DNA of 64,000 nucleotides from a virus. Below, piece by piece: positions 1-22,269 of this stretch. Position 1 is the stretch's first letter, and the number at the start of each line of letters is the position of its first letter. The notes beneath the pieces were generated by a model that searched no databases, was not told where the DNA came from, and worked only from the letters and a program-made list of their open reading frames with translations. The translations under genes and the position numbers were made by a program. The stretch lies in the IMG/VR virus record IMGVR_UViG_3300032116_000032, positions 1 to 64,000 of that record. One strand, written 5' to 3'.

Positions 1-1047
1 GGAACTAATGGATCTTCGGGAACTAATGGTACTAGCGGTACTAACGGAACATCAGGAACGAATGGTACTAGCGGAACAAACGGAACTTCAGGAACCAACG
101 GGACTAATGGAACATCAGGTACAAATGGAACGTCAGGGACTAACGGTACAAATGGGTCAAGTGGTACAAACGGAACGTCAGGTACTAATGGGACTTCGGG
201 AACAAATGGAACCAACGGTACAAATGGGTCAAGTGGTACAAACGGAACAAACGGTACAAGTGGAACCAACGGAACATCGGGAACTAATGGTTCTAGCGGT
301 ACGAATGGTACTTCAGGAACTAATGGTACGAATGGATCTTCGGGAACTAATGGTACTAGCGGTACTAACGGAACTAATGGATCTTCAGGTACAAATGGAA
401 CATCAGGTACTAACGGAACTAATGGATCTTCAGGTACAAATGGAACATCAGGTACTAACGGAACTAATGGATCTTCAGGTACAAATGGAACGTCAGGAAC
501 TAATGGAACTTCAGGTACAAACGGAACAAACGGTAGTTCGGGAACAAATGGAACTAGCGGTACAAATGGGACTAATGGCTCTTCAGGAACAAATGGAACT
601 TCAGGAACCAACGGAACAAACGGTACTTCAGGAACCAACGGAACATCGGGTACTAACGGAACTAGTGGGACAAATGGTACTAACGGGTCTTCAGGTACAA
701 ATGGAACGTCAGGAACTAATGGAACTTCAGGTACAAACGGAACAAACGGTAGTTCGGGAACAAATGGAACTAGCGGTACAAATGGGACTAATGGATCTTC
801 AGGTACTAACGGGACAAATGGTTCAAGCGGTACCAACGGAACTTCAGGAACTAACGGAACATCCGGTACTAATGGAACAAATGGTTCAAGTGGTACCAAC
901 GGAACTAGTGGTACTAACGGAACAAATGGATCGAGCGGTACAAATGGAACAAACGGTTCAAGTGGAACAAACGGAACATCAGGAACTAATGGTACAAGTG
1001 GAACCAACGGAACATCAGGAACTAATGGAACCAATGGTACAAGTGGG
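1..1047 (+). repeat. Collagen-like 9-nt-period repeat (GTN/GTS/GSS triplets), about 116 triplets
   Basis: Gly codons fall at every checked position 1+9n. There is a perfect 45-nt tandem unit at 361-491 (about 2.9 copies) and an exact 107-nt duplication at 472-578 / 688-794. Confidence 0.95.
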
Positions 1048-4000
1048 GTTTCTCCTACAGTACCTGGAGCTAATAATGAAGTACTAACTTCAGATGGTGC
1101 GGGCGGCATAGTTGCTGAATCACTTTTAACTTTTGATGGTACAATCACATCACCTTACTTGAATATTAATTCAGTAAAGGTAGGTAGAGGGAATAACAAT
1201 GTTGCAACTAACATTTCAATTGGATGTACGGTTGCATTTGCTAATACCGCAACGGGACCATTAAACATTGCAATTGGTGGATTTTCTTTAAAATGTAATA
1301 CTACAGGATGTAGGAATGTTGGTATTGGACCGAACAGCCTTTACACGAATACTTCAGGAAATAGAAATATTGGTATTGGATATAGGTCTTTACTGTTGAA
1401 CTCGAATGGTGCAGAAAACGTCGCAATAGGGGGACAATCTACTTTATCTTCAAATACCTCGGGAAGTAATAATGTTGGTATTGGTAGCTACGCTTTGAGA
1501 TATACAACAACAGGAAATTACAACTTTGCGATTGGTAGTAGAGTATTAAATTGTAATACAACGGGAAGTTGTAATATTGGTATTGGTCGATTATCATTAT
1601 ATTGTAACACAACTGGTTGTCACAACACGGCATTTGGATTTTGTTCATTACGTAGTAATACTACAGGTTCACAAAATAATGCAATGGGTCAATACGCATT
1701 GAGAAGTAACACTACAGGTTCACAAAATAATGCATTTGGGCGTAATGCTTTACGAAGCAATGTTAGTGGTGTCAATAACGTCGCAATTGGTGATGGTACT
1801 TTATTTAATAATACAATTGGTAGTGGTAATTTAGCAGTTGGGTATCGATCTATGTCTTCAAACATAAATGGGGGTAATAATACCGCAATTGGTAGATACT
1901 CTTTACAATCTAACACACAGGGAACCTATAATAACGCGATAGGATTATCTTCATTACGTAATAACACATTAGGTTGTCATAATACGGCAATTGGTAGGTA
2001 TTCATTGTTAAATAACAATACAGGTAACTTTAATACCGCAATTGGTCAATATGCTTTAAGAAATAATACGTCGGGTCTTCATAACATAGCAATTGGTTGT
2101 CAATCCTTACGTTATAATACAACAGGGTGTGATAATGTTTCGTTTGGACGAGACGCATTACGTTTCTCTACAACAGGCAGTAATAATATTGGAATTGGTA
2201 GAGAAACTCTATACGCATTTGGGGCTAAATATGACAACGTTGCGATAGGGTATCGATCTTTAAAATGCGTAACAACAGGATGTTGTAATATAGCAATTGG
2301 TAGACGAGCATCATATAATAATACAACTGGTAATAATAATGTTTCTATTGGATCGGGAGTATTATTTCAAAATACAACGGGTTGTCAAAATATTGGAATA
2401 GGAATATCTAATTTAGATAATAATACGACAGGTTATCAGAATATCTCCATAGGTGCGTCCGCTTCACTTGCCAATACAACTGGATCACGAAACCTTTCAA
2501 TTGGGTACAGAGCATTATTTTCAAATGTTGGGGGTTGTTATAATATTGCAATAGGTCACTTTAGTTTATATTGTAGTAATACACTAAGTCACGAAATTGC
2601 AATTGGTTCGGAAGCTATGAGATATAGAGCCCCTTTCAATTTACCTGGACCTGCAAATATTGCTATTGGTCTGTTCGCCCTAAGGGGGTGTAACTATACG
2701 TATAAACAATGTGGATATGGAAACATTGCAATTGGCGGTTGTTCTCAAAGATATAACTCTACAGGACATTACAATATAGGTATAGGTAGTAACACATTAA
2801 CTTTAAATAAAACTGGACGGCAAAATGTTGCTATTGGTGCAAATGCACTTAGAAATACAACAGCTTACAATCCATCCGTAGCGGTAGGTTTTTTAGCCTT
2901 ATGTACCCAAACAACAGGTTATAATAATACTGCAGTAGGTACGAGAGCTTTACAATCAAATTCAACTGGTATTAGAAATACCGCAGTTGGTCATTTCGCA
3001 TTAATATATAATACTGGAAATGACAATACTGGAGTGGGTTACAATACTCAAAATAATGGAGGAACTGCATATGCAAATAGTTCCTTAGGAAGTAAAACAT
3101 TAGAGTCCAACATAGCAGGTTTTCATAATGTTGCTATGGGATATAGAGCATTAGCAAAAAATTTGACTGGTTTTAAAAATACTGGTTTAGGTTCTCGTTC
3201 AATAGAAAATAATACTTATGGTCATAATAATATTGGAATTGGTTATCAATCTCTATATAACAATAACACAGGATATCAAAACATTGCAATAGGTACTTGT
3301 AGTTTACTAAATAATACATACGGTCAATTTAATATTGCTCAAGGATATAGAGCCATGTATAATAACACGTATGGATGTTTTAACGTTGCAATTGGTAGAT
3401 GTGTACTTGAAAATAATACAACCGCAAATGAAAACATTGCTATCGGTAGAAAACCTTTATTCTCAAACACTACAGGTACTCAAAACATCGCTTTAGGTAG
3501 AAACGCACTTATCTGTAACTCAACAGGAAATTACAACATTGCAATGGGTAGAACTGCACTATATGAAAATACAACTGGTGTAGGAAACGTTTCAATTGGT
3601 ATTCGAACAATGGCATATAACAAATCAGGATCTTGTAATGTTGTTTTAGGTTATAGAGCAAATTATAATGGTTATCAGTCGTGTTTTAATGTGTTTATAG
3701 GTACTAAAGCAGGTTGTAATCATTCTTGTTATTGTACTAATGCTAATGTTGCAATAGGATTTCAAGCTTTATTCTCAAGTGTTGCAACTTCAGAAAACGT
3801 TGCTATTGGTACTGAAACATTATATGGTAATACTTCGGGTGGTGTAAACGTTGCAATAGGGGAAAGATCTCAAAGAAATTTAACTACAGGTCAAAGAAAC
3901 GTAAGTGTTGGTTCGCGAGCCATGTATTATGCAACCACAACTAGATATAGTATTGGTGTAGGTGCTTGGGCGGGGTCTAAATTAACTACAGGTTATGATA

Positions 4001-4332: not shown

Positions 4333-4378
4333 AAAACATAGACATTTTTATTAACTATAGTATTTTTTAAAATAAAAA

Positions 4379-5197
4379 ATGGTACAAAAAATATTTTATA
4401 ACACATCACTCCCAAGAGCAGGGTCTACATTACTTCAAAACATTTTGATGCAAAATCCTGAATTTTATTCAACACCAACTTCTGGCCTTGCTGATTTATT
4501 GATGACTGCAAGGAGTGTTTATTCAACAGGAGACGCATTTAGAGCTCAAGATCCTGAGGAAATGAAAAATGGAATGAAAAATTTCTATAAACAAGGTTTG
4601 TATGGGTTTTATAATGCAATTACAAATAGACCGTATGTTTTTGAAAAAAGTAGGGCTTGGATCGGTAATTATGGATTTTTGGAGTTTTTTGAAGAAGATA
4701 TCAAAATGGTTTGTATGGTTAGAGACTTACGTTCTATTTTTTCATCAATGGAAAAAAACTTTAGAAAAAATCAACACAAAGATCCTATGATTGTCAATGG
4801 AGTTGAATTGAAAAATATGACAACAGTTGCAAGAATTGATCACTTCTCAACAACTCCACCTGTTGGTCCGTCAATTGAATGGTTATTTGAAGCAATACAC
4901 CAAGGATATGATAAAAAAATTCATTTTATACGTTTTGAAGATTTGACTGTAAATCCTGAAAAAGAAATGAAAAAACTATATAACTATTTAGGATTTGATT
5001 ATTATCCTCACCACTTTACAAACATGGAACAACTAACACACGAGAATGATGTAATTCATGGAATTTTTGGCGACCATACAATTAAACCAAATATTGAGCC
5101 ATATAAAGAAGACTTTATTGAAGTTTTAAGTAAAGAACAATCAGATAGAATTAGATCTCACTATGATTGGTTTTATAAAAGATTTAACTATTTATAA
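4379..5197 (+). CDS. PAPS-dependent sulfotransferase
   Basis: The N-terminal 5'-PSB loop is LPRAGSTLL, the 3'-PB-like motif is VRDLRSIFSS, and IRFEDL appears later. Size is 272 aa. Confidence 0.85.
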   Translation: MVQKIFYNTSLPRAGSTLLQNILMQNPEFYSTPTSGLADLLMTARSVYSTGDAFRAQDPEEMKNGMKNFYKQGLYGFYNAITNRPYVFEKSRAWIGNYGFLEFFEEDIKMVCMVRDLRSIFSSMEKNFRKNQHKDPMIVNGVELKNMTTVARIDHFSTTPPVGPSIEWLFEAIHQGYDKKIHFIRFEDLTVNPEKEMKKLYNYLGFDYYPHHFTNMEQLTHENDVIHGIFGDHTIKPNIEPYKEDFIEVLSKEQSDRIRSHYDWFYKRFNYL

Positions 5198-5199
5198 TT

Positions 5200-5460
5200 A
5201 TGGAAACACAAGACACACCACCAAACCCAAGAAATTCTGTATCGGCAGCCTTTGATTCGGTAAACTTAATCAATAACACAATACCATCTACAGGAAAAAC
5301 TATAGATGAAAAAATAGACATTGTGAAACGCAACAAAGACCATTTAGAAATTATGATGGGTAAAAGTTGGTTTACAGAAGCTTTAATAAATGACGAAGGC
5401 AATCAAATACAAACCTGTATTGTAAATGCTCAAAATTTCTTAGACTCTAATGGCGGATAA
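5200..5460 (+). CDS. Small helical hypothetical protein (possible fibre chaperone)
   Basis: 86-aa ORF. It shares the DSxxxIN...NKxHLxI pattern with the next ORF. Confidence 0.6.
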   Translation: METQDTPPNPRNSVSAAFDSVNLINNTIPSTGKTIDEKIDIVKRNKDHLEIMMGKSWFTEALINDEGNQIQTCIVNAQNFLDSNGG

Positions 5461-5944: not shown

Positions 5945-6001
5945 TATATCTTACTAAAAGATTTATTTAAAATTTATTTTTCTTATTTTTTTATAAAAAA
6001 T

Positions 6002-6880: not shown

Positions 6881-6882
6881 AT

Positions 6883-7335
6883 ATGATTTATTGGTTTACA
6901 GGTCAACCTGGTGCGGGTAAGACCTCAATTGCTGAAGTACTAATTACAAAACTACCAAATAACACCTTTCACGTTGATGGTGATGATCTAAGAGAAATCT
7001 TTAATAACAAAGATTATAGTGAATTGGGAAGAAGAAAGAATATTGAACTTGCTCAACACATTACACATTTTCTACATAACAAAGGTAATGATGTTATTGT
7101 AAGTTTAGTTTCTCCTTACAGAGATCAGAGAGAAGAATTTAAATCAAAGTTGGGTAATGACATTATCGAGATATATGTTCATACCGAAAATTTAAGAGGA
7201 CGTGAAGACTTTCACGTTAAGAACTACGAAGAACCATTAGAAAACTTTTTAGACATGGATACTTCAGATGTAATAATTGAAACTTGTGTTAATCAAATTT
7301 TAGGATATGAAAAACTACATAGCAAAAGCAGATAA
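6883..7335 (+). CDS. cysC: Adenylyl-sulfate (APS) kinase
   Basis: WFTGQPGAGKT P-loop, DGDDLRE, RRKNI and VSLVSPYRDQRE are all hallmark CysC motifs. Confidence 0.9.
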   Translation: MIYWFTGQPGAGKTSIAEVLITKLPNNTFHVDGDDLREIFNNKDYSELGRRKNIELAQHITHFLHNKGNDVIVSLVSPYRDQREEFKSKLGNDIIEIYVHTENLRGREDFHVKNYEEPLENFLDMDTSDVIIETCVNQILGYEKLHSKSR

Positions 7336-7705
7336 GAAAACCTCATCAACAGACAGACAATACTCAATGTTTGTTGGGAGATGGCAACCATTGCATGAAG
7401 GTCATCAATGGTTATTTAATCAAGCGTTAGAGGAAGGTAAAAACGTTTTGATTTGTATTAGAGATGTAAAACCTGACGATAAAAATCCTTTTACTCCTGA
7501 TGAGGTTAAAAAGAATATTGAGGACCACTATGGTAACTTAATCACTGAAGAGCGTGTTAAGGTAATTATTATTCCCGATATAGAATCAATTAACTACGGT
7601 AGAGGTGTTGGATACGACGTAATTGAGCATGTACCACCACAAAATATTCACGACATTTCTGCGACTAAAGTAAGAGAACAAATGAAGAAAGAAGGTAAGA
7701 TATGA
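7307..7705 (+). CDS. HxGH (HIGH)-superfamily nucleotidyltransferase, NadM-like motif; candidate minimal ATP sulfurylase
   Basis: GRWQPLHEGH and C-terminal DISATKVRE motifs. It overlaps cysC by 29 nt. Confidence 0.75.
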   Translation: MKNYIAKADKKTSSTDRQYSMFVGRWQPLHEGHQWLFNQALEEGKNVLICIRDVKPDDKNPFTPDEVKKNIEDHYGNLITEERVKVIIIPDIESINYGRGVGYDVIEHVPPQNIHDISATKVREQMKKEGKI

Positions 7706-8145
7706 AAGAAAAAATAAAAAAATTCCAAATCAGATTCAATGTTAACAGTACATCTGAAATTGATCGATGGAGATTAATTACAGATGGTGATGAAAAATTG
7801 GTAAAAGATATTATTATTGATGGTCATACATATACTTCTATGGACTGGATGGAGGATATTAATCAATATAAATGGCATGTCAGTTGTGAAGGTTATGTGA
7901 CAATAACTAATAATGTTGCTTATGTTGTAACCGTGAAAGAAGATGCTGCCATGCTCAGACACATATTAAAAACAATATCCTATCGTTTTTTAGGTACTTT
8001 TACAACAATTGTGACCGCATATTCATTAGGAGTTTCTTTAGAGTTATCATCTTTATTAGGTGTTGGTGAACTTATGATAAAACCTGTTATGTATTTTTTT
8101 CACGAAAGAATTTGGTATAAATTTGTAAGAATAGGTAAAAAGTAA
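7702..8145 (+). CDS. Soluble N-terminal domain fused to a DUF2061-like membrane domain
   Basis: The C-terminal RHILKTISYRFLGTFTT...KPVMYFFHERIW matches the DUF2061 pattern as I recall it. It has an ATGA overlap with the upstream gene. Confidence 0.7.
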   Translation: MKEKIKKFQIRFNVNSTSEIDRWRLITDGDEKLVKDIIIDGHTYTSMDWMEDINQYKWHVSCEGYVTITNNVAYVVTVKEDAAMLRHILKTISYRFLGTFTTIVTAYSLGVSLELSSLLGVGELMIKPVMYFFHERIWYKFVRIGKK

Positions 8146-11055
8146 TTACCTATTGTCCATATATATTATCACTTCATTATAATATTCTATGAATTCGTCA
8201 TTCCATAGATTCCATTTAATATCAAGACCATCGACTGAATAAACTTGAATATTATTGAATTGGGATAAAATATTATCTCTAAACCATCTAAACTTACATT
8301 CGTGGTAATTTGAGTCGTTTCTGAGATGAAACTCTGTTACAATTTTTGGAATTGATTTTAAAAATTCAATGTTACTTTCTTGAAAAACATCGTATTCCCC
8401 ACCTTCACAATCACACTTCAAAAAATCAATTTTATCAATTTTATATTCATCTAAAAATTCTTTGAAACTAAATGTCGGGACGTTTTCTGTCATATTATCC
8501 CAAGTGATTTCAATTTTCTTTTTATCAGTTATTGCTCCCTGAATAATTTTTACATTTTCTTGACCTACATTGTTTTTTAAAATTTTGATTTGGTGACTTA
8601 ATGGTTCGACAACATAACATTGTTTTGGTTTTTTCGGTAATATTTTATAAGTAAATGGACCTAAAGATGCACCTAAATCTACAACAATGTCACCCTCCTC
8701 AACCTCAAAAAATCTTTCATAAGTATTACCTTCAAATATTTCTTCCTCAGCTTGTTTTACATACCATTCACTTCTTCCACCCCAATCAAAATTAATTTCT
8801 TGAGTTATTTCCTTATTTGTGATTTTATTAATTTCTGAAATAACCATTTCAGAAGTAATTTGTTTTGTACATTCAAATTGACGATCAGTTCCTTTATGGT
8901 GAGGACACCAATTCCAATCACCAGCATCTAATCTTTCTGAATTAAAACATCCGTGACAAACATTTTGATTTATAACTCTATAGGTATCTAAAGTTGTTTC
9001 TGCCCACTTTGCACTAAAACCTGAAATTAAAATAACAGGAAGTTTACATGCCCAAGCCAACCAAGATAAACCTGATCCTAAACCAATAAAAAATTCACAT
9101 GTTGATAAATCATCTATAACTTCTTGTATGTTCCCACCTTTATATATTGTAACTCCTTTTGGGTAAAAATTATTCATATATCCGTCTCCTTCTTTTGAAT
9201 AAACCATACACTCATATCCTAAACCTATAAGATAATCAACAACCTCTTGCCAACCACTTTGATTATTCCAATATTTTGCTTGTGCTGTTGAATGGATCCC
9301 AATACCAACTTTTTTAACTTTTTCTACTTTTGGTAGTTTTAATTTTGGTCTAATTTCAGAATAATCTAACCCTAAAATATCTGTTGCTGTTTTTTGAAGT
9401 GGTTGTCTTCTGAAATCATTTTTATGATTATTTTTATCGTATAAACCTTCTGATGTATAATACCAACCAAGCCTGTATTGTGCATATATGTTTTCAACAA
9501 CTTTACCTGGATCAACAAACTCAATTTCAGGGTATTGGTCAATAAACAAGTCGTTCATGAAAGTTGAAACGATTAATTTGCAATTGTGTTTTTGTCTAAA
9601 AACCTCACAGTATGGAACCCAAGCCATTGTATCACCTAATGATTTTGACCCGAAAGAAATGTAAACTCTTTTGTTTGTCAGATCCAATGTATTTGTGTAA
9701 ATTAATTCGTCATTTTCTCTTATTTCTGTTTTCCATTTTACGTAATATTCTGTGTTAATTTTTACCCAATGGTTTATAGGTAGAGTATTTTCGTAAATTA
9801 AATTATCATTATCATCAAATATTTTTATATTAAATGGATTTTCACTCTGACCTAAAATTTCAACAAAAGGATTTATAACGAAATGTTGATTAACAATGTA
9901 ATCGTTTTTAATTTTTTCATTTTTTTGTTTAGGTGTATGCATTACATTTTTATAAAAATAATATAAGCTGTCCCCAAAATCATTTTGATATTCAATCGTA
10001 TAATTTGAGTCCTTATCTATTAAATCGATTAAGTTATTTTTTATTTCATTATAATCGTCACTTGATATAGGATAAATGTATTTGTCAAACATACCTACAT
10101 ACTGAGGTAAATTTCTTGTCAATATTTTTAATCCATAATTAATAGATTCTCTAATAACTAATGGATTACATTCCCAAGTTGAGTTAAACATTAAAACATC
10201 AGATGCTATCATGAAATCATCGACATCGTCTCTTTCACCCCAAACCGTCACATTACTTGGTAAGTTATTCATAATTGGACCCCAATAATCCTCAAAATTT
10301 GGTGCTTGGTTTCCAATAAAATGAAAATGAACGTTGGGATGAGATTCCTCAAATAATCTTGCAACTTCAACACCCTCTTTTTGATTTTTACCCGATGTCC
10401 ACAGACCAACGTTTAAAACATGAGTCTTCATATGATCTAAACCTATTTTATCTCTTACCTCAATTTTTTTAAGAAGAGGTACTCTATGATCATCATAATA
10501 TATTTCTAATTCATCTAAAATTGGTTTTACTTTATTTTCATATGGATACATTATGAGTTCTTTTTTAGATGGTGTGTCTTTAAAAGAAACTTGATTATGG
10601 TATGGAGTTACAAGACAATAGTAATCAGGATGTAATTTTTTATTATTAGGATCAAACCAAATGTTATGACAAGTTTCTACTACTCTCCAAGTTCTATTAT
10701 TATCATATAATTCGTTTAATAAATCTAATGGCATTTTATTAAAACTTTCAAATGCTTCAGGAATTTCTTCAGCATGTACTATATCTATTTTGTTTTCTTT
10801 TATAATACGAATCAATTCATATTTTTTTTCTTTTTCTGTTGTTCCACCAAGAGTCCAAAAATGACCAGTTTCCAATAAATCAATAATTTTATTTCTTTGC
10901 ACAACATAAGTGTCACTAAACTGAGAATACTCAACTAAAAAAATTTCAATTTGATTTTTGTATTTTTGAAGGGACTGAATTCTTTTCAAAACAAATTGTG
11001 GCATACCCCCTGTTGAAAGGTGTGGTGTAAGATATAATAATTTAATTTTTTCCAT
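8146..11055 (-). CDS. Three-domain enzyme: GT4 glycosyltransferase + Aah/TibC-like protein O-heptosyltransferase + FkbM-like methyltransferase
   Basis: GT4: HLSTGGMPQF and GERDDVDDFMIASDVLMFNSTWECNPLVIRES. Aah/TibC-like: SKSLGDTMAWVPYCEVF, GLGSGLSWLAWA and CHGC-x13-C-x11-C. FkbM: VVDLGASLGPF and LKCDCEGGEYD. Confidence 0.8.
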   Translation of the reverse strand: MEKIKLLYLTPHLSTGGMPQFVLKRIQSLQKYKNQIEIFLVEYSQFSDTYVVQRNKIIDLLETGHFWTLGGTTEKEKKYELIRIIKENKIDIVHAEEIPEAFESFNKMPLDLLNELYDNNRTWRVVETCHNIWFDPNNKKLHPDYYCLVTPYHNQVSFKDTPSKKELIMYPYENKVKPILDELEIYYDDHRVPLLKKIEVRDKIGLDHMKTHVLNVGLWTSGKNQKEGVEVARLFEESHPNVHFHFIGNQAPNFEDYWGPIMNNLPSNVTVWGERDDVDDFMIASDVLMFNSTWECNPLVIRESINYGLKILTRNLPQYVGMFDKYIYPISSDDYNEIKNNLIDLIDKDSNYTIEYQNDFGDSLYYFYKNVMHTPKQKNEKIKNDYIVNQHFVINPFVEILGQSENPFNIKIFDDNDNLIYENTLPINHWVKINTEYYVKWKTEIRENDELIYTNTLDLTNKRVYISFGSKSLGDTMAWVPYCEVFRQKHNCKLIVSTFMNDLFIDQYPEIEFVDPGKVVENIYAQYRLGWYYTSEGLYDKNNHKNDFRRQPLQKTATDILGLDYSEIRPKLKLPKVEKVKKVGIGIHSTAQAKYWNNQSGWQEVVDYLIGLGYECMVYSKEGDGYMNNFYPKGVTIYKGGNIQEVIDDLSTCEFFIGLGSGLSWLAWACKLPVILISGFSAKWAETTLDTYRVINQNVCHGCFNSERLDAGDWNWCPHHKGTDRQFECTKQITSEMVISEINKITNKEITQEINFDWGGRSEWYVKQAEEEIFEGNTYERFFEVEEGDIVVDLGASLGPFTYKILPKKPKQCYVVEPLSHQIKILKNNVGQENVKIIQGAITDKKKIEITWDNMTENVPTFSFKEFLDEYKIDKIDFLKCDCEGGEYDVFQESNIEFLKSIPKIVTEFHLRNDSNYHECKFRWFRDNILSQFNNIQVYSVDGLDIKWNLWNDEFIEYYNEVIIYMDNR

Positions 11056-11091: not shown

Positions 11092-11099
11092 TATTTATA
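11092..11099 (+). promoter_or_regulatory. Representative copy of the recurrent TATTTAT(A) late-promoter-like motif
   Basis: The same motif lies about 4-45 nt upstream of at least 15 structural genes, in the sense orientation on either strand (see finding). Confidence 0.6.
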
Positions 11100-11119: not shown

Positions 11120-12118
11120 ATGGCAACTGCAAGACCTTTTGCGTACAACACAGGATCGACAATTTCGGGAACCATACAAGTTGGTAACTTGGCAGTTGGT
11201 TACCCGACTGCAGGATTTGCGTCAACAGGTCTTGAATGGTGGAATGGTCCTGATGAAGATTTGGGTTACGTTATTGCACAACAAGTTCCTGATGATAGTC
11301 AACCAACACCAGTTGTTGGGGTTACAGCATCTGTGGGATTCTTCAGAACTAACGGATTTGATGATAATGAATTTGTAACTTTGGCAAATTTAGTGTCAAA
11401 TGCGAACTATACTAATGCGTCAAATGCCGCTATAGGGTTAACTTCTAATGGGTATTGGACATCTTATGTTCCTAATTCAAATTTAAAATTACACTTAGAT
11501 GCATCAGACCCAAATAGTTATTCAGGGGTAGGTACAACATGGTATGATTTGAGTAGTAGTGGTAATGATGTACAAATGAACAACTCAGGAAGTATTAATT
11601 GGGTTAATACGGGTGCTACATATTTTTCCACAGGATCTAATGGTTGGTTTTCAAACCCTTCAGGAATAGATTTGCCAACAGGTAACACACCTTATACTTT
11701 CATTATATGGGCTCAAATAGAATCAGGTTGGAATGCTAACGGTTTCATGAGTATTGGTCCATTTGGTATTGCTAATCAATCAAATGCATTTAGGACTGGT
11801 ATAGAAAATCAATTTATAAACTATTGGTGGGCTAATGATTTAGCCGTAGTAGGGTCACTACCTTCAACCACCTCTTGGTTTAACGCTGTTGCTAAATTTG
11901 ATGGAACAACAAGAAGTATATTAGTTAATGGTGTACTTTTAGGTTCTGACACTCCTGTAGGTCATTACGTTAGCACAAGCGAATTACAAATTGCAAAAAC
12001 ATATACTAATGAGTATTTAAATGGAAATGTTGGTGAAGTGTTAATTTATGATATCGCATTATCCGATTCAGATATATTACAATATTATAATGATACCAAA
12101 ACAAGGTTTGGTCTATAA
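11120..12118 (+). CDS. Virion-associated protein with a C-terminal LamG/ConA-like jelly-roll domain
   Basis: LHLDASDPNSYSG...WYDLS and NGNVGEVLIYDIALSDSDILQYYN are typical of phage LamG-like domains. It is preceded by the TATTTATA motif. Confidence 0.75.
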   Translation: MATARPFAYNTGSTISGTIQVGNLAVGYPTAGFASTGLEWWNGPDEDLGYVIAQQVPDDSQPTPVVGVTASVGFFRTNGFDDNEFVTLANLVSNANYTNASNAAIGLTSNGYWTSYVPNSNLKLHLDASDPNSYSGVGTTWYDLSSSGNDVQMNNSGSINWVNTGATYFSTGSNGWFSNPSGIDLPTGNTPYTFIIWAQIESGWNANGFMSIGPFGIANQSNAFRTGIENQFINYWWANDLAVVGSLPSTTSWFNAVAKFDGTTRSILVNGVLLGSDTPVGHYVSTSELQIAKTYTNEYLNGNVGEVLIYDIALSDSDILQYYNDTKTRFGL

Positions 12119-12158: not shown

Positions 12159-13097
12159 TTGATGAAAAACATTTGTATTGATATTACACAATGCCGAGCT
12201 TTAGGAGATACTTTATGTGCCACACCTGTAGTTAGAAAAATTAGTAAAACATATAATCAAAAAGTTTCTGTAATCTCCCATCATTCAGAAATATTTTCAA
12301 ATTTACCTTATGTAGAAAATAATTATCAATATTCCCCCGAAACGTTTGATAAAATAAAAGACGAGTATGAAATGTTTCAAACTTTCGACGTTTTTTATAA
12401 GGAAAGTGGTATTTGTAACAAACATAATACAATGGACATCAGACAACTTCATGCCATTAGTTTAGGTTTTATGTTAACAAAAAAAGAAATGGAAATGGAT
12501 TATATCACTGATGACAATGTCATCTTACCTGATTTACCATTAAAATATGTTTTAATTCATCCAGTTCAAAATTGGGATTCAAGAACTTGGCCGGCAAAAA
12601 GTTGGCAAATGTTAACACAACTTTTAAATGAAAAAGGTATTTCAGTAATTTCTGTGGGTAAAGATTCTTCAGAAATGGGAGGTTCTAATGTTGATAAACC
12701 CGTATTTAATTTTCCAATAAAGCTTGGGTACAACTTAATGAATCAAACGACCTTAGATCAAACTTGGCATTTGATTAACAATAGCTCTTGTTTTGTAACT
12801 ATGGATTCAGGTCTTTTACATTTAGCAGGAACAACAGATGTTAACATAATTCAGTTGGGAAGTTCCATTGATCCTGAGTTCAGATCGCCCTATAGACAAG
12901 GTTCTCAGAATTATAAATACCACTATGTTAGAGGTGGTTGTGGATTAAATTGTGCTTCAGATATGAAATATGGTGTTAGAGAATGGGGGACAATTCAAGG
13001 AATACCATCTTTAGTTGGGTGTTTAGAAAGAAAAAAAACTTTTGAGTGCCACCCATCTGTTTTACAGGTATACCAAAAAATTTTGGAAATAGTGTAG
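12159..13097 (+). CDS. GT9-like glycosyltransferase with a C-terminal four-Cys cluster
   Basis: RALGDTLCATP, SRTWP and FVTMDSGLLHLAG motifs, then C-x3-C-x22-C-x8-C. Confidence 0.8.
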   Translation: MMKNICIDITQCRALGDTLCATPVVRKISKTYNQKVSVISHHSEIFSNLPYVENNYQYSPETFDKIKDEYEMFQTFDVFYKESGICNKHNTMDIRQLHAISLGFMLTKKEMEMDYITDDNVILPDLPLKYVLIHPVQNWDSRTWPAKSWQMLTQLLNEKGISVISVGKDSSEMGGSNVDKPVFNFPIKLGYNLMNQTTLDQTWHLINNSSCFVTMDSGLLHLAGTTDVNIIQLGSSIDPEFRSPYRQGSQNYKYHYVRGGCGLNCASDMKYGVREWGTIQGIPSLVGCLERKKTFECHPSVLQVYQKILEIV

Positions 13098-13116: not shown

Positions 13117-13419
13117 ATGCCAAATTACGTAAATATAAATTCAATCGTAGGAACACCTCCATACACAATATTTGTATGTGATCAGACTTTTACTTCTTGT
13201 TTTTTGGCTGCAGGACCAATTCCAATATCTACACCATATACTTTTATGGTACCACCACCATTAACTAATGTGACAGACATTATTGTTAAAATAATTGATA
13301 GTAACGGATGTGATACTTGGTATCCACTATCTTGTGGGACTTACTACGGAAAGGAATTCGAAGATTTTGCAATATTTTTGTTTCAGGACACAAATATATA
13401 TTTATTTGAAGGTCAGTAA
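13117..13419 (+). CDS. Small virion adaptor-like hypothetical protein
   Basis: 100-aa ORF with a beta-rich body and an acidic/aromatic C-terminus (EFEDFAIFLFQDTNIYLFE). It is preceded by TATTTATA. Confidence 0.55.
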   Translation: MPNYVNINSIVGTPPYTIFVCDQTFTSCFLAAGPIPISTPYTFMVPPPLTNVTDIIVKIIDSNGCDTWYPLSCGTYYGKEFEDFAIFLFQDTNIYLFEGQ

Positions 13420-13430: not shown

Positions 13431-14765
13431 ATGCCAGTTTATAATAGACTCACAGATAGATCTCAAGTTTCAGCCGTCACAGTTAACGATATTTTTCACG
13501 TTGTAGTTACAGGTGATACAAGTCAGAGCCCACAAGGTTCTTCATATTTTGCCCCAATTAGTTTTTTACAACCAATATTAAGTGGTGCTAGTGGTTCGGC
13601 AGGTACTTCAGGTACAAATGGCACAAGTGGTACTAATGGGACTAGCGGGACTTTTGGTACTTCAGGTACAAATGGCACAAGTGGTACTAATGGTACTAGT
13701 GGGACTAACGGTACAAATGGTACTAATGGTACTAGTGGGACTAACGGTACAAATGGTACAAGCGGAACTAATGGTACAAATGGTACAAATGGTACAAGCG
13801 GAACTAATGGCACAAATGGTACTAATGGAACATCAGGTACCCATGGCACATCGGCAACTAACGGTACGTCAGGTACTAATGGTACAAGTGGAACAACTCC
13901 ACCGGGTTTTACATCAGGTACTAATGGTACTAATGGTACAAACGGAACATCTGCAACTAATGGTACAAACGGAACTAATGGTACTTCAGGTACAAATGGG
14001 ACATCAGGTACCAACGGAACATCAGGGACTAATGGAACTAATGGTACTTCAGGTACATCGCCAACTTCAGCAACTACAGTCAGTACTATAGAAAACACAG
14101 GAAATACTAAATTTTATGTAACATTTGTTGATTCAAACAATACCGTTGCGCTAGCAGAAAGTTTATACACAAATGCAGGTATTAGCTTTAATCCAAGTAC
14201 TGATATTCTTGAAGTTTCTTCCGCATACCAAAGTGGTGACGGAACAGTATCCGCACCATCACATAGTTTTACTTCAGACCCAAATACGGGAATTTATAGG
14301 ATAGGTACCGATAATATCGGTGTTGCCACTGGCGGTGTAAGACGAATGAGTGTTGATAGTAGTGGTACTTTATATGTTGGTAACGGGAATGAATCTAATG
14401 GATCAAACTTCATAATTCCTTTAGGTGGGTACGTCCAAACATCTAACGCAACTCCAACAACATTAATAACTTTGGCAACATCAAACGATAATGTTTATAC
14501 GGTAGAGGCGTTTGTTGCTGGTGCAACAACATCAGGGACTGTTGGTATTGGTGGAATTATAAGTGCAACTTTTTTAAATAACGGAGGAACTGTTAATCTT
14601 ATTGGGGCAGTTCAAGGGTCAGTTCAAGAAAACATTATAGGGTCACCAACATTTACACTTCTTGGGTCGGGTAGTAATATTATTTTACAAGTTACAGGAG
14701 TTGCCTCAACTACTATTAATTGGTTCGGTAAAATTAAATATATCACAGGAAGTAGGTCAATTTAA
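13431..14765 (+). CDS. Collagen-like fibre protein
   Basis: About 50 GTN/GTS triplets (nt about 13584-14060) with one PPGFTS interruption. A PSHSFTSDPNTGIYR fibre-type motif and a beta-rich tip follow. Confidence 0.8.
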   Translation: MPVYNRLTDRSQVSAVTVNDIFHVVVTGDTSQSPQGSSYFAPISFLQPILSGASGSAGTSGTNGTSGTNGTSGTFGTSGTNGTSGTNGTSGTNGTNGTNGTSGTNGTNGTSGTNGTNGTNGTSGTNGTNGTNGTSGTHGTSATNGTSGTNGTSGTTPPGFTSGTNGTNGTNGTSATNGTNGTNGTSGTNGTSGTNGTSGTNGTNGTSGTSPTSATTVSTIENTGNTKFYVTFVDSNNTVALAESLYTNAGISFNPSTDILEVSSAYQSGDGTVSAPSHSFTSDPNTGIYRIGTDNIGVATGGVRRMSVDSSGTLYVGNGNESNGSNFIIPLGGYVQTSNATPTTLITLATSNDNVYTVEAFVAGATTSGTVGIGGIISATFLNNGGTVNLIGAVQGSVQENIIGSPTFTLLGSGSNIILQVTGVASTTINWFGKIKYITGSRSI

Positions 14766-14813: not shown

Positions 14814-16058
14814 ATGAGAATATTTGTACAGATTGCTGCTTATCGTGACCCCCAACTTATACCAACAATCAAATCTATGTTGGAGAATGCAAAAAAACCA
14901 AAAAACATTATTATTGGTATCGCAAGACAATTTAATCCTGAAGATGGTTTTGATGATTTAACTGAATATGAAAATGATGATCGTTTCCGTATTTTAAATA
15001 TCCCATACACCGAATCAAAAGGAGTGTGTTGGGCAAGACATCAAGTACAACAATTATATGGGGGTGAAGAATACACACTTCAAATCGATTCTCATATGAG
15101 GTTTGAAAAAGATTGGGACGATACTTTAATTAAAATGATTAAAAAATTACAAAAACTTGGTCATAAAAAACCTTTGTTAACGGGTTATGTTTCATCTTTT
15201 GATCCTGATAATGATCCTGAAGGTAGGGTTAATGAACCTTGGAGAATGGCATTTGATAGATTTACACCTGAAGGCGTTGTATTTTTCTTACCTGAAGTGA
15301 TTCCTGATTGGAAAAAAATTAAAGATCCAATTCCCGCAAGATTTTACTCGGCACACTTTTGTTTCACTTTAGGTCAATTCTCAACTGAAGTACAACACGA
15401 TCCTGAATTTTATTTTCACGGAGAAGAAATTTCAATTACGGTTAGAGCTTATACACATGGATATGATTTATTTCACCCAAACAAAGTTATTATTTGGCAC
15501 GAATACACTAGAAAGGGTAGAACTAAACAGTGGGATGATGATAAGGAATGGTATTTGAAAAATACTGCCTGTCATAAAAAAAATAGACAACTTCTTGGTA
15601 TAGATGGTGAAAAATATGAAGGAGATTATTATGAGTGGTTTGGTAAAGAAAGAACAATAAGAGATTATGAAAAATATGCGGGGTTGCTATTTGAGACAAG
15701 AGCAGTACAACAAGACACTATAGATAAAAAATATCCACCAAACGAGTACAATTTTGAAAATGAGAACGAATGGAAAAAAAGTTTTTCCACAATATTCAAA
15801 CACTGCATTGATTTAGATTTAAATCAAGTTCCTGAAACGGATTATGATTTTTGGGTTGTTGCCTTCCACGATCAAGAACATCAAACAATTTTTAGACAAG
15901 ATGTCGACGCAAACGAGATTATAAGAATAAAGTCAGACCCTGAAGGATACGGTAAAATATGGAGAGAGTTCAACACAACAAAGATACCATCTTATTGGGT
16001 AGTGTGGCCTCACTCAATTTCAAAAGATTGGTGTGATAGAATTGTCGGTAATTTATGA
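14814..16058 (+). CDS. GT60-like polypeptide GlcNAc-transferase (Skp1 GlcNAc-T / GlcNAc family)
   Basis: IFVQIAAYRD, GVCWARHQVQ, YTLQIDSHMRF, LLTGY, FHGEEI and RAYTHGYDLFHP match the GT60 pattern. Confidence 0.75.
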   Translation: MRIFVQIAAYRDPQLIPTIKSMLENAKKPKNIIIGIARQFNPEDGFDDLTEYENDDRFRILNIPYTESKGVCWARHQVQQLYGGEEYTLQIDSHMRFEKDWDDTLIKMIKKLQKLGHKKPLLTGYVSSFDPDNDPEGRVNEPWRMAFDRFTPEGVVFFLPEVIPDWKKIKDPIPARFYSAHFCFTLGQFSTEVQHDPEFYFHGEEISITVRAYTHGYDLFHPNKVIIWHEYTRKGRTKQWDDDKEWYLKNTACHKKNRQLLGIDGEKYEGDYYEWFGKERTIRDYEKYAGLLFETRAVQQDTIDKKYPPNEYNFENENEWKKSFSTIFKHCIDLDLNQVPETDYDFWVVAFHDQEHQTIFRQDVDANEIIRIKSDPEGYGKIWREFNTTKIPSYWVVWPHSISKDWCDRIVGNL

Positions 16059-16942: not shown

Positions 16943-16943
16943 G

Positions 16944-18611: not shown

Positions 18612-18638
18612 TCGAAGTATTTATAGATAAAAGATTAG

Positions 18639-19334
18639 ATGGAGTTTTTTATCAGAAAAAATGCAACACTCCCTGTGTTGAAGATTAATGCTATTAAAGA
18701 CGGAAGAAGTGACTACAATAGATCTATGAGATTTATTGAGGATACCGACATCTTTTTTTCTATGGTGGACACAGAAACAAACATCCCAAGAATTACTTCT
18801 CGACCTGCGGGTTTGATGAAAAAAGACCCATTAGATATTAGTACTGATGCCGAGTATTATGTTTATTATCAATTTACACCATTTGACACAAAAAAAGTTG
18901 CAAGATATAAAGGTCAGTTTTTATTCAGAAATGAAACTGGAATATTAACATTACCATTAAGTGAAGAAATATATATAAACGTAATAGAAAGTTTTATAAT
19001 TGATGACTTCGAGTTTCAAAGTTGTTACGTAGTTGATTATCCTTGTTGTTTCGGACCTGTACCACCAAAACCACCTGGACCTATTCCACCAGGACCATCA
19101 ACAACTACTACAACGACTATAATACCAACTACCACAACTACTACGATATTTGTATCACCGACCCCTACGGTTACGCCGACTAATACGGTTACACCAACCC
19201 CTACGGTAACACCAACTAACACCCCTACACCAACACCAACATCATCTCAACCGGTTGAGGAACTTATAGATCCAATTATTACTGAAAATAATGAGTATAT
19301 TAATATTGGTAATAACGAATACCTAAAATATTAA
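18639..19334 (+). CDS. Virion adaptor protein (BppU-like N-terminal domain) with a Pro/Thr-rich linker
   Basis: FFIRKNATLPVLK...DTKKVARYKGQF, followed by TTTT/PTPTVT repeats and the acidic/aromatic tail ITENNEYINIGNNEYLKY. Confidence 0.6.
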   Translation: MEFFIRKNATLPVLKINAIKDGRSDYNRSMRFIEDTDIFFSMVDTETNIPRITSRPAGLMKKDPLDISTDAEYYVYYQFTPFDTKKVARYKGQFLFRNETGILTLPLSEEIYINVIESFIIDDFEFQSCYVVDYPCCFGPVPPKPPGPIPPGPSTTTTTTIIPTTTTTTIFVSPTPTVTPTNTVTPTPTVTPTNTPTPTPTSSQPVEELIDPIITENNEYINIGNNEYLKY

Positions 19335-19357
19335 AACTATTTATAAAATAAAAAACT

Positions 19358-21397
19358 ATGGCACTAACAGGAAAAACAATCGGAGAATTAGAATACCTAC
19401 AATTCCCAACTAATGATACATTACTCCCCGTACAATATATTGGGGATACTTTTCATATTTCATTTTCTTCGATAACTTATAACGAAGGGACATACGCACA
19501 ATTTGTTTCAGAATCAATCGCTGGCATATTAACACCAGGAAGGTTTTACCTAATGACGGATTTCCAAACTTGTTATGACCAACCAAATTACACTAATGAG
19601 GGTGTTGCAATAACAACAGGAAATTATAAGACAGGTAGTACCGAACCAATCTTGTTATTGGCAATATCAACAACAGAGTTTTCACCAACGGTATATTCTA
19701 CAATATATATAAATGATAAAATAACATATGATTTCACTTGGGATACTACTGAAGTAACAATTTCACCGGCAAAAGGTAGAATAACCGAAAGAATTGATAG
19801 GTTTAATAACAGAGCTGACTACGATTTCAGAGCCGTTCAGTTTATTAGATATCAGGCATTTTTATCTGAAAACTATTATAACGGCACTGTGTCAATAGAT
19901 GGTTCAGGTAATGTTGTTGGTGTCGGTACAACATTTGATACTGATTTTAGTGTTGGGCAAATTTTGGGTATACATAGCCCTAACTATGGAAACCTTATTG
20001 GTGGTTTTGCGTATTATGAAATTTTAACCATCACGGATGCAACAAATATGACAGTAACAGGAACAACTTTCTATACTGAAAGTAACAAATTTTATTCACG
20101 AGGTACTGGAGGAGGTATAAGGTCTCCATTCAAATGTAACGTACCTACACCGTCATACACAGGGTCCTCAGAATATTATACCTTTAATGAAAATGATAAC
20201 GTAAACACATATTTGGGGGATAATCAAAATTATGATACATTTATTCTATCCAACAACGTGTTTTTGAATGGTAGTTATCAAGATATGGTATTTGGTGGTA
20301 ATGTTGTTGGTAACACGTTTGACAATTTTATGACTAGTAGTACCTGTGGGCCATTTTTCCAATTTAACATCATAACAAATAATTTTGATAGAAATACTAT
20401 TGGTCCTGATTTTACATTCAATTTTATAGAGTGTGATATGCAAGGTAATACTGTCGTTGGTAATTTTGACTATAACATGCTTGGGGATAATGACGGATTT
20501 GATTTTGATTTTAATCAAGTAGGTTGGGGTTTCCGAAATAACTTTTTAACAATGTATGATGATGATTTTATTTACAATACGATTGGTCCTAATTTCAATT
20601 CAAACTTGATTCATTATGGTTTTTCAAATAATCTAATTGGTAATAATTTTAATAATAATATTCTTAGGAATAATTTTGACGAAAATGAAATTGGGGTGGC
20701 GTTCTATAGTAATACTGTTAGAGCACCTTTCTTCAATAATAAAATAGGTAGCACATTTTATAACAACATTTTCTACAGTAATGTTAATGGTAATGTTTTC
20801 GGTAATAACTCATTTGGAAATACTTTTGGTGACCTAAATAATGTAGGCGTTTATAATTTCCAAAATAACCAAATTGGTAGTGATATGACGAATAATTATT
20901 TTTCGGGAGCAACTTTCAGTAATATTATAGGTGATGCCTGTCAAAGTAACAACATTGACACAAACTTTTCCTATAACCAAATTGGTAGTAATTTCCAATC
21001 AAACACAATTGCAAATGATTTTGGTTTTGGTGGAGGAATAACAAGAGGTAATGTTATTGGAAATCAATTTTCAAATAATGTAGTTGGTGAATATTGTTAT
21101 GATAACACTTTTGGTGATAATTGTACAAGTAATGTTTTAAACGATAATTTTGTGAATAATAAAATTTCACACGGAGCTACCCTAATAACAGGAGATTTTG
21201 ACAATTCAGGAAGCTTTCAAAATAATGTCCTAACATTTGGTTATTACTCCGCAAACTTAACACTTTCTGGTGGTACTGGTGGTAATCCATACCTTTATAC
21301 TGATGTTAGTTGTAATATTGTTAGAGATGTGAATGCAACAATTTATGTGACTTTCTTAAGTGGTGGTACTGCTTCGTCACAAACGGTAATAATTTAA
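19358..21397 (+). CDS. Fibre/spike protein with Asn-rich beta-helix repeats
   Basis: The N-terminus is GKTIGEL...DTLLPV. A GTVSIDGSGNVVGVGTTF fibre motif is followed by many N-x-I-G-x-x-F-x-x-N repeats. Confidence 0.7.
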   Translation: MALTGKTIGELEYLQFPTNDTLLPVQYIGDTFHISFSSITYNEGTYAQFVSESIAGILTPGRFYLMTDFQTCYDQPNYTNEGVAITTGNYKTGSTEPILLLAISTTEFSPTVYSTIYINDKITYDFTWDTTEVTISPAKGRITERIDRFNNRADYDFRAVQFIRYQAFLSENYYNGTVSIDGSGNVVGVGTTFDTDFSVGQILGIHSPNYGNLIGGFAYYEILTITDATNMTVTGTTFYTESNKFYSRGTGGGIRSPFKCNVPTPSYTGSSEYYTFNENDNVNTYLGDNQNYDTFILSNNVFLNGSYQDMVFGGNVVGNTFDNFMTSSTCGPFFQFNIITNNFDRNTIGPDFTFNFIECDMQGNTVVGNFDYNMLGDNDGFDFDFNQVGWGFRNNFLTMYDDDFIYNTIGPNFNSNLIHYGFSNNLIGNNFNNNILRNNFDENEIGVAFYSNTVRAPFFNNKIGSTFYNNIFYSNVNGNVFGNNSFGNTFGDLNNVGVYNFQNNQIGSDMTNNYFSGATFSNIIGDACQSNNIDTNFSYNQIGSNFQSNTIANDFGFGGGITRGNVIGNQFSNNVVGEYCYDNTFGDNCTSNVLNDNFVNNKISHGATLITGDFDNSGSFQNNVLTFGYYSANLTLSGGTGGNPYLYTDVSCNIVRDVNATIYVTFLSGGTASSQTVII

Positions 21398-21417
21398 TGG
21401 ATATTTAATAATAACAA

Positions 21418-22269
21418 ATGGAATTCACAATAGGACAAAATTCAACCTTACCATTACTTAAACTACAAGTAGTGAATGATGGTACCCAAAATTTTGACTC
21501 AATGATGAAGTTTATTGAGACCTCATCTGTGTTTTTTTCAATGATTAGAACAGAAAATGGAATTCCAAAAATATTAACAAAAAGCGCGGGGTTTGTTGAA
21601 AAGTTAGAGATGGACCCAAATGCTTCACCTGAGTATTATGTTTACTACAGATTTACAACTCAGGACACTTCAAAAGTTGGGAGATATGAAGGTCAGTTTT
21701 TATTCATAAACGAGGAAGGTACTTTAGTTTTACCAATAAGAGAAAGTTTATATATTAATATTATTGAAAGTTTTATTGCCAATGATTTAACTTATGATCC
21801 TTGTTATGTTTTAGAATATAAATGTTGTACAACACCATTTCCATCACCGACTCCTACACCAACAAAAGAACCTGTTATTAGTCCTACACCAACAACTACA
21901 GTCACACCTACACCAACATTAACACCAACACCAACCACAACATCAAATAAACCTGTTTGTCCTCACCCAATAAGAAGAACTTTAGTTTATGGTACAGATC
22001 AACATGGTCCATTTGGTGACAGTCAAGGTAAGGCTTGTGAGGCATATTTTTGTTTTACTTTGGGGTCATGTTCTACTTCAGATTACTTGACCAGATATTT
22101 CAACATTGGGGGACCTAATGTTGGTTCATTAGTTTTTGATACAGAAATTTCGTGTTATAAAACAAATGATACAGGATATTTTATTTCATGGTATGCCGGT
22201 GGGTATACTGTATATTATATTGACAATGGTGTCATCACTGACGTTGTTGATTGTGAATGTGATGTTTAA
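21418..22269 (+). CDS. Paralogue of 18639..19334 with a PT linker and a different, Cys-containing C-terminal domain
   Basis: MEFTIGQNSTLPLLK...YVYYRFTTQDTSKVGRYEGQF aligns with MEFFIRKNATLPVLK...YVYYQFTPFDTKKVARYKGQF. Confidence 0.7.
   Translation: MEFTIGQNSTLPLLKLQVVNDGTQNFDSMMKFIETSSVFFSMIRTENGIPKILTKSAGFVEKLEMDPNASPEYYVYYRFTTQDTSKVGRYEGQFLFINEEGTLVLPIRESLYINIIESFIANDLTYDPCYVLEYKCCTTPFPSPTPTPTKEPVISPTPTTTVTPTPTLTPTPTTTSNKPVCPHPIRRTLVYGTDQHGPFGDSQGKACEAYFCFTLGSCSTSDYLTRYFNIGGPNVGSLVFDTEISCYKTNDTGYFISWYAGGYTVYYIDNGVITDVVDCECDV

Follow-up and report, generated by a model that had tools for sequence, protein, structure and literature searches.

The DNA analysed here, referred to as the window, comprises the first 64 kb (64,000 nucleotides) of IMGVR_UViG_3300032116_000032, a viral record of 136 kb with a completeness of 46% (CheckV). 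Between positions 1 and 22269 the window carries a cluster in which genes for glycosyltransferases, a sulfotransferase and enzymes resembling those of sulfate activation alternate with genes for structural proteins rich in Ser, Thr and Asn (Table 1). An earlier note on this DNA had read the cluster as a system by which the phage builds a methylated and sulfated glycan coat on its own fibres and tail sheath. The results described below suggest that the phage probably does glycosylate its own fibres, in the host cytoplasm and during virion assembly, and the firmest part of this reading is the link between a TibC/Aah-type O-glycosyltransferase domain (BAHT) and collagen-like genes. Nothing was found that links the tail sheath to the enzyme system. 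No paper on a BAHT or a collagen-glycosylation system in a phage, or on phage particles that bear sulfate, was returned by full-text literature searches.

The BAHT domain occupies the centre of a three-domain protein of 969 residues, between a GT4 domain (PF00534, 4e-9) and the FkbM-like methyltransferase domain already recognised in the earlier note (TIGR01444, 4e-16). It scores 287.9 bits against the BAHT model TIGR04414, for which the curated cut-off is 200, covering model positions 28–374 of 374, and aligns over ~340 residues with TibC (PDB 4RAP; E 1e-68 to 2e-68); on these matches it is a member of the BAHT family. The functional residues of TibC were taken from its structure paper (PMC4358343) and mapped on the HMMER alignment. 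The catalytic base Asp-110 of TibC corresponds to Asp-475 here, within SLGDTMAW, and the iron-finger cysteines Cys-339, 342, 358 and 370 correspond to Cys-700, 703, 717 and 729 (C-x2-C-x13-C-x11-C), whilst Thr-226, Lys-230 and Trp-305 are also kept; all of these positions are invariant across 18 homologues. The GT4-BAHT-FkbM fusion is widespread, and a collection of metagenome proteins contains 4,295 homologues at E <= 1e-10, on contigs that reach 280 kb. There is no autotransporter in the window, and the neighbours of the BAHT gene are instead collagen-like fibres and a fibre of 17-residue repeats.

The larger of these fibres is encoded by the first gene of the window, of which position 1 is a contig end inside a gene of 13.3 kb that runs 8.9 kb further upstream. 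The missing part was supplied by a second IMG/VR contig (63,987 bp; L215:14156 onwards, L085), which overlaps the start of the window by 4,890 bases with 0 mismatches (100% identical) and lengthens the genome by ~59 kb upstream of the window. The full open reading frame (ORF) encodes 4,424 residues, arranged as a head of 266 residues, 1,020 uninterrupted Gly-X-Y triplets and a final repeat part. X is Thr in 94% of the triplets and Y is Asn (59%) or Ser (39%), with no proline at all, so that the rod has the unbroken Gly-X-Y pattern of a collagen but not the Pro or hydroxyproline, or the charged pairs, in X and Y that would stabilise one. As a collagen helix the rod would be roughly 0.9 micrometre long, as estimated from the usual rise per residue. 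Within the window, (GTN/GTS)n stretches lie at 1–1087 and inside the second collagen-like gene. The remainder of the first ORF (~1190–4200) holds ~57 repeats of seventeen residues, N[IV]AIGxx[SA]LxxNTTGxx, which form a probable beta-helix, although a PDB sequence search with this part gave no match. The GTN/GTS, NTT and PT/TT repeats that the earlier note had placed in the interleaved structural genes were all recovered by repeat analysis. The NTTG-repeat part contains 50 N-x-S/T sequons, compared with 28.6 in shuffled sequences; cytoplasmic N-glycosylation of these sequons was considered and set aside, as no HMW1C/GT41-like enzyme was seen.

Co-occurrence of the cluster with collagen or Ser/Thr-repeat genes, which the earlier note had raised, was checked by scanning IMG/VR and GTDB genomes for patterns. 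In IMG/VR a profile-derived scan gave 212 stretches encoding BAHT relatives, the best 80 of which are the related loci counted below, and 29 distinct phage loci retained at least 5 kb on both sides of the BAHT gene. A collagen-like (GT[SN])n ORF lies within 6 kb of the BAHT gene in 22 of these 29, and a collagen-like or Ser/Thr/Pro-rich ORF in all 29. In the usual layout the next gene after BAHT is convergent with it and is a giant (GTS/GTN/GSS)n gene with as many as 900 triplets. In one sub-lineage the collagen gene is upstream of BAHT on the same strand, and in another (47% identity) there is no collagen gene and several Pro-Thr-rich proteins are encoded beside the operon, so the linkage persists despite changes of arrangement that include convergent downstream genes, same-strand upstream genes and inserted modules. 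The non-repeat fibre tips at these loci fall into at least five unrelated groups, and it is therefore the repeat, and not the tip, that is the constant partner of BAHT.

As synteny among members of a single phage lineage does not count as independent evidence, prokaryotes were also scanned with the BAHT-domain profile, using one genome per species. This gave 43 relatives, 18 of which have a collagen-like ORF directly beside the BAHT gene, in Methylobacter (including a complete chromosome), Methylococcales, Polaromonas, Burkholderiaceae, a metagenome-assembled genome of Pseudobdellovibrionaceae and others; more distant relatives from Selenomonadaceae are without such a neighbour. Five of these neighbours were read, each of them a small protein carrying (GTS)n, (GTT)n or (GTA)n runs, and four begin with a segment resembling a signal peptide or that of a lipoprotein, the fifth frame being open at its 5' end. 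The adjacency in 18 of 43 genomes argues that one branch of BAHT acts on Gly-Thr-Ser repeats. The Methylobacter chromosome (L222:6860-9044) and similar loci (L221-L256) carry a stand-alone TibC-like gene together with a gene for a small secreted (GTS)n protein, a pair that, judged from its genes, looks like an undescribed bacterial glycoprotein system.

Table 1. Genes of the cluster, in window coordinates, with the matches on which each assignment is based (TATTTATA, octamer described in the text; aa, amino acids; pLDDT, predicted local distance difference test; HMM, hidden Markov model; PAPS, 3'-phosphoadenosine 5'-phosphosulfate).
Feature	Position	Strand	Evidence
Fibre, C-terminal part, 1,443 aa	1..4332	+	Pfam Collagen 4e-49; PHROG 6002 'virion structural protein' 2e-162; PHROG 4636 'tail spike'
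PAPS-type sulfotransferase	4379..5197	+	PF13469 6e-16, 59.7 bits (cut-off 27); PF00685 9e-11; PRAGST and RDLRSIFSS
Two small paralogous ORFs, 86 and 164 aa	5200..5944	+	No family matches; TATTTATA upstream of first
GT9-like GT-B glycosyltransferase, 292 aa	6002..6880	+	Fold only: pLDDT 68; Foldseek WaaF, WaaC, TibC 4e-8 to 1e-6
APS kinase, short form	6883..7335	+	PF01583 3e-17, 63.5 bits (cut-off 21.1)
HxGH/ISxT nucleotidyltransferase, 132 aa, overlapping both neighbours	7307..7705	+	PF01467 3e-6
DUF2061 protein	7702..8145	+	PF09834 2e-13
Three-domain enzyme, 969 aa: GT4 (aa ~190-350), TibC/Aah-type O-glycosyltransferase BAHT (~405-750), FkbM methyltransferase (~790-915)	8146..11055	-	HMM and PDB matches
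Structural-type protein, ConA-like lectin (Laminin_G_3) domain	11120..12118	+	PF13385 6e-11; PHROG 8510 virion structural; TATTTATA upstream
Stand-alone GT9	12159..13097	+	PF01075 1e-15, 57.8 bits (cut-off 22)
100-aa protein; in relatives a domain of larger structural proteins	13117..13419	+	TATTTATA upstream
Second collagen-like fibre, 444 aa, ~50 Gly-Thr-Ser/Asn triplets and globular tip	13431..14765	+	Pfam Collagen 4e-20; PHROG tail fibre families
GT60-family (PF11397 'GlcNAc') glycosyltransferase	14814..16058	+	1e-70, 239 bits (cut-off 21)
HtrL-like protein (weak), 295 aa	16055..16942	+	BLASTP E 0.002 to next gene; 29% identical to XacN1 ORF332
HtrL_YibB domain (N-terminal half) and probable GT-A-like C-terminal domain, 555 aa	16944..18611	+	PF09612 3e-15
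Structural-type protein, Thr run and Pro-Thr linker	18639..19334	+	TATTTATA upstream
Asn/Gly/Phe-rich repeat protein, 679 aa	19358..21397	+	TATTTATA upstream; homologues in 10/80 loci, within conserved block
Paralogue of the 18639-19334 protein, Pro-Thr linker	21418..22269	+	Sequence comparison

What is observed is the identity of the enzymes and the conservation of their catalytic residues and of their gene linkage; from this we infer the substrates, the sugars, the order of the steps and any sulfation. The main substrate would be the giant proline-free fibre, both its Gly-Thr-Asn/Ser triplets and its NTTG-repeat beta-helix, and the smaller collagen-like and Pro/Thr-linker proteins are likely further substrates. 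The TibC/Aah-type and GT60-type enzymes would place the first sugars on Ser and Thr, the fused GT4, the two GT9-like and the HtrL/GT-A-like enzymes would lengthen the chains, and the fused FkbM domain would then O-methylate a sugar. In the window phage and a minority of its relatives the sulfotransferase may finally add sulfate, with PAPS supplied by the phage APS kinase and perhaps also by the neighbouring small nucleotidyltransferase. The proposal that the glycan is methylated gains from the physical fusion of the FkbM methyltransferase to glycosyltransferase domains, whereas its sulfation is the least firm part of the scheme and is considered possible rather than probable.

Of the approximately eight glycosyltransferase-like domains counted in the earlier note, the GT4, TibC/Aah, stand-alone GT9 and GT60 domains and the HtrL domain of the 555-residue protein stood up to profile searches. 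The 292-residue protein was recognisable by its predicted fold, with no HMM match and no match in a PDB sequence search, and the assignments of the 295-residue HtrL-like protein and the GT-A domain are weak. The C-terminal half of the 555-residue protein resembles GT-A enzymes only weakly (pLDDT 49, Foldseek E ~1e-3, an EDD motif), and a profile built from this half had no PDB match; PDB sequence searches with the GT60 protein and the whole 555-residue protein likewise gave no match. Members of GT60 are known as protein-hydroxyl N-acetylglucosamine (GlcNAc) transferases from the Skp1 and trypanosome mucin enzymes. Of the 80 related loci, 48 have the stand-alone GT9 gene beside that for BAHT. 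No membrane-spanning segment is predicted in any enzyme of the cluster, and a search of the incomplete 136-kb record gave no phosphoglycosyl transferase.

The genes at 4379–8145 form what appears to be a sulfation module, in which the sulfotransferase named in the earlier note was clearly identified. PRAGST and RDLRSIFSS in this protein are presumably the 5'-phosphosulfate-binding (5'-PSB) and 3'-phosphate-binding (3'-PB) motifs of sulfotransferases. The same note had listed genes of the PAPS pathway. Here an APS kinase was recognised by its Pfam model, but an ATP sulfurylase was not recognised, as the 132-residue nucleotidyltransferase scores 18.5 bits against PF01747, below the cut-off of 24.3. 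The APS kinase itself reaches 67 bits against NCBIfam TIGR00455, below the cut-off of 138.7, and profile coverage is confined to positions 4–110 of 152. The nucleotidyltransferase is closest to NadM-type NMN (nicotinamide mononucleotide) adenylyltransferases (PDB match 1e-5) and is a candidate sulfate adenylyltransferase; a role as heptose-1-phosphate adenylyltransferase was rejected, since the RfaE-II model gives no match. Together with the DUF2061 protein, for which no longer fused forms were found and on which the literature naming this family gave no useful information, it belongs to clusters in the protein Atlas that contain phage sequences only.

Seven of the 80 BAHT loci carry the module, and six more loci were found via the sulfotransferase. 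Its genes run in the order fibre gene, sulfotransferase, (small ORF), APS kinase, nucleotidyltransferase, DUF2061 and GT9-like gene; the sulfotransferase follows a fibre gene in all 7 related loci, and the order of APS kinase, nucleotidyltransferase and DUF2061 is kept in the loci that bear this trio (L033-L038, L082-L084). A GT9-like gene is present in every sulfotransferase locus that reaches past its position, and three loci retain the sulfotransferase and GT9-like gene alone; this pair makes up the core, and the kinase trio is an optional supply line. The close relative L002 has no sulfation module in 63 kb and carries a carbamoyltransferase and an extra FkbM instead, the pattern expected of interchangeable glycan tailoring. 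Where the window phage has other genes, L002 encodes a NodU/CmcH-type carbamoyltransferase at 6773-8347(-), an FkbM-HtrL fusion at 3501-5876(-) and a DUF2827 protein at 18677-19876(+).

The sulfotransferase could act on a glycan, on a tyrosine or on some other acceptor. One explanation is that the BAHT/GT60 block alone decorates the fibres, whilst the sulfotransferase module targets a tyrosine or serine of the tip, a host molecule or a metabolite, and the virion bears no sulfated glycan. The accessory nature of the module agrees with this, as does its association with beta-helix-tip fibres and not with the collagen rod as such. The presumed sulfurylase is not identified, and the similarities of the sulfotransferase to solved enzymes are all marginal and are to protein-tyrosine sulfotransferase 1 (TPST1) and polyketide-pathway sulfotransferases such as CurM ST. 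The constant pairing with a GT9-like glycosyltransferase points instead to a glycan, as do a distant homologue in cyanophage S-SRM01 that sits with a glycosyltransferase and a sugar epimerase, and a best NCBIfam match, far below its cut-off, to the Nod-factor sugar sulfotransferase NoeE. A separate target for sulfation is thus regarded as rather unlikely. At the other extreme, the fibres could be near-micrometre structures whose proline-free chains are folded or kept extended only through dense O-glycosylation, with a methylated and sulfated, polyanionic coat resembling mucin or glycosaminoglycan and with sulfate activated by a new minimal sulfate adenylyltransferase, formed by the 132-residue protein with DUF2061. 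Sulfated glycoproteins would then be known for the first time from a bacterial virus; we hold this fullest version of the proposal to be improbable.

As the window encodes a contractile-tail sheath, gp32-like and UvsX-like proteins, a DnaB-type helicase and a family-B DNA polymerase (PolB), the source phage is, on its gene content, a large (jumbo) T4-like myovirus, uncultured and aquatic. The nearest matches of its sheath protein are in a 484-kb uncultured phage and Microcystis phage Mel-JY01, and Megablast found no DNA-level relative of the 22-kb region among 50,697 deposited phage genomes. The lineage may be that of the 'moraphages', jumbo phages of aquatic habitats for which Bacteroidota are the predicted hosts and which have four core groups of glycosyltransferases (PMC12619734). 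Across the whole record, the octamer TATTTATA lies 8–45 nucleotides upstream of 15 genes on the coding strand, compared with 3 genes for its reverse complement, and it precedes the sheath gene and the structural-type genes of the cluster (for example at window positions 11092, 13103, 18618, 19338 and 32534). From this placement it is probably a late promoter of the phage. Scans for sigma-70 promoters and terminators returned matches at chance level only.

Several genes outside the cluster are also unusual. The upstream contig encodes a double GT2 protein of 500 residues at L215:3971-5470(-) and a weak GT4-like protein at L215:6806-8059(-), which lie 6–10 kb before the fibre gene among genes for a dUTPase, a PolB-type exonuclease and a WYL-domain protein. 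At 26687-28882(-) the window encodes a 731-residue protein with a complete Fe/Mn superoxide dismutase domain embedded at residues 164–352. The tail sheath gene (32573-35923) encodes 1,116 residues, of which the last ~290 match the sheath family and the ~800 N-terminal residues form extra domains. Downstream of the sheath region, at 40328-53193, are two very large ORFs of 1,704 and 2,478 residues.

The cluster abuts the PolB gene at 22365, and this position could mean that its glycosyltransferases hypermodify the bases of the phage DNA as a protection against restriction. Phage glycosyltransferases that act on DNA are well known, as cited in PMC12619734, and the upstream GT2 genes also lie among dUTPase and exonuclease genes. 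The families of the cluster speak differently, since BAHT and GT60 act on proteins, and modification of DNA would leave the linkage to collagen-like genes, bacteria included, unexplained. There is also no thymidylate-synthase-type hydroxymethylase in the 136 kb, a weak point as the record is incomplete. Hypermodification of DNA is therefore considered highly improbable.

A more serious alternative is that the enzymes remodel the host surface, whether lipopolysaccharide (LPS) core, capsule or a beta-helical adhesin, so as to mask the receptor against trapping by debris or superinfection, in which case the linkage to fibre genes would reflect a shared match to the host. GT9, GT4 and HtrL_YibB are families of LPS-core gene clusters, the enzyme genes lack the octamer TATTTATA seen before structural genes, and the sulfotransferase/GT9-like pair tracks particular fibre genes, as receptor matching would also predict. 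Against this, BAHT is a family of protein glycosyltransferases whose bacterial relatives lie beside (GTS)n protein genes and not LPS genes; in phages it is the collagen-like rod that stays constant beside BAHT, whilst the receptor-binding tips vary; no membrane-associated or export components were found among the cluster enzymes or in the 136 kb; and the virions of phage XacN1, discussed below, carry glycoproteins. Remodelling of the host surface consequently appears quite unlikely. Glycosylation of the virion fibres, as the earlier note had proposed, is favoured by the protein-acting families (BAHT, and GT60 by HMM), by the conserved linkage to repeat genes and by the Schiff-positive proteins of XacN1.

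Several observations weigh against glycosylation of the fibres. The typical setting of GT9, GT4 and HtrL enzymes is LPS-core synthesis. Inherited synteny accounts for part of the linkage seen within a single phage lineage, and when 48 viral contigs were chosen by a (GT[SN])6 DNA pattern alone, 11 carried BAHT above the cut-off and 37 had (GT[SN])n genes without it, many of these contigs being short fragments. The sulfotransferase is without a close characterised relative. None of the enzyme genes is directly preceded by the octamer, and that for BAHT lies on the other strand; this counts mildly against the proposal, although the enzymes could still be co-transcribed. Finally, Arg-286, which binds ADP-heptose in TibC, is replaced by Val-646 in the window enzyme, and Pro-300, a position of stereoselectivity, by Gly.

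Mutation of Arg-286 cripples TibC (PMC4358343). With neither this residue nor that of stereoselectivity conserved, the donor sugar may not be heptose. A complete relative of 373 kb (G051), which has direct terminal repeats and the same fusion, encodes dispersed RfaE-I-like (39139-40074), GmhA-like (118722-119126) and RfaE-II-like (317253-317645) proteins; from their similarities these look like a phage-borne ADP-heptose pathway, which favours heptose as the donor. No GmhA/RfaE-type supply of ADP-heptose was found in the window's own record or in a closer relative of 274 kb.

Glycosylated virions are textbook knowledge for eukaryotic viruses, whilst in phages they have been shown in few cases. 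Here, a protein-glycosylating enzyme family known from the adhesins of pathogenic E. coli recurs in environmental phage sequences by the thousand, linked to collagen-like genes that rank among the longest known. Should the proposed glycosylation be real, it would change views of phage adsorption, of stickiness to mucus and particles and of protease resistance in lakes and seas, and (GTS)n proteins would be a new class of TibC-family substrate, in bacteria too. The enzymes would also be ready-made tools with which recombinant collagen-like materials could be decorated. Confirmation of the sulfation module would bring in a modification that no phage particle is known to carry.

The closest described systems are TibC-TibA and Aah-AIDA-I of E. 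coli (TIGR04414; PDB 4RAP/4RB4), which share with the window enzyme the family, the catalytic Asp and the 1Fe-0S four-cysteine finger. TibC and Aah are cytoplasmic and glycosylate, at multiple sites, Ser and Thr of a long, repetitive fibrous protein that is encoded nearby. TibC acts as a dodecameric ring and transfers heptose onto Ser of the beta-helical passenger of an autotransporter, whereas the window enzyme is phage-encoded, is fused between GT4 and FkbM and does not conserve Arg-286. Instead of an autotransporter passenger, it is likely to modify a proline-free collagen-like rod or a helix of 17-residue repeats. Glycosylation of collagen-like proteins is itself familiar from Bacillus BclA, the glycosylated collagen-like filament of the exosporium. 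In Clostridioides difficile the glycosyltransferase gene sgtA lies beside the collagen-like gene bclA3, and sugars are found on Thr of Gly-X-Y (PMC7157674). As a GT-A plus TPR enzyme, SgtA adds beta-GlcNAc; the repeats of BclA3 contain proline and amount to tens of triplets, compared with about a thousand proline-free triplets here. HMM scans found no such GT-A plus TPR architecture in the cluster; the adjacency of the two genes is shared, and for this SgtA-BclA3 is a precedent.

Among viruses, the chlorovirus PBCV-1 (A064R) and the fibrils of giant viruses offer a parallel, in that virus-encoded, cytoplasmic, multi-domain glycosyltransferase and methyltransferase enzymes build the glycans of capsid or fibril. 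They differ from the window phage in belonging to eukaryotic viruses, in their unrelated enzyme families and in their N-linked or polysaccharide products. Mycobacteriophage glycosyltransferases decorate the phages' own structural proteins (Freeman et al. 2023, as cited in PMC12619734). Those glycans are on the C-termini of capsid and tail-tube subunits of Actinobacteria phages and are made by enzyme families other than those of the window, with no methylation or sulfation module or collagen-like substrate known.

Microcystis phage Mel-JY01 is the only cultured phage found with a BAHT. In its record PP395634, at 3065-8430, a GT4-BAHT fusion lies directly after an 18%-serine 'structural protein'. 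An annotated 'hypothetical protein' of 519 residues in this phage (L088:739-2298(-)), one third proline with PEVP/PLVP repeats, may be a wrong-strand reading of a repeat gene. Homologues of the GT60 protein with 42–46% identity occur in four isolated jumbo phages, among them Xanthomonas phage XacN1 (ORF334, 45%), the virions of which contain at least two glycoproteins by Schiff staining, and the authors suggested that these are made by the phage's own glycosyltransferases (PMC5852040, Supplementary Fig. S4). The glycoproteins were not assigned to particular proteins or enzymes in that paper, and XacN1 differs from the window phage in having no BAHT match (in a search of the phage collection with the 969-residue protein), no match to the sulfotransferase and no tail fibres that are visible. 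The gene order of XacN1 is that of the window's relatives, with ORF334 (GT60), ORF333 (carbamoyltransferase), ORF332 (HtrL-like), ORF330, which is 41% identical to the 555-residue protein over its full length, and ORF328 (GT9). A phage with glycoproteins in its virions therefore carries homologous GT60, HtrL-like, HtrL/GT-A and GT9 genes in the same order, near the DNA polymerase gene.

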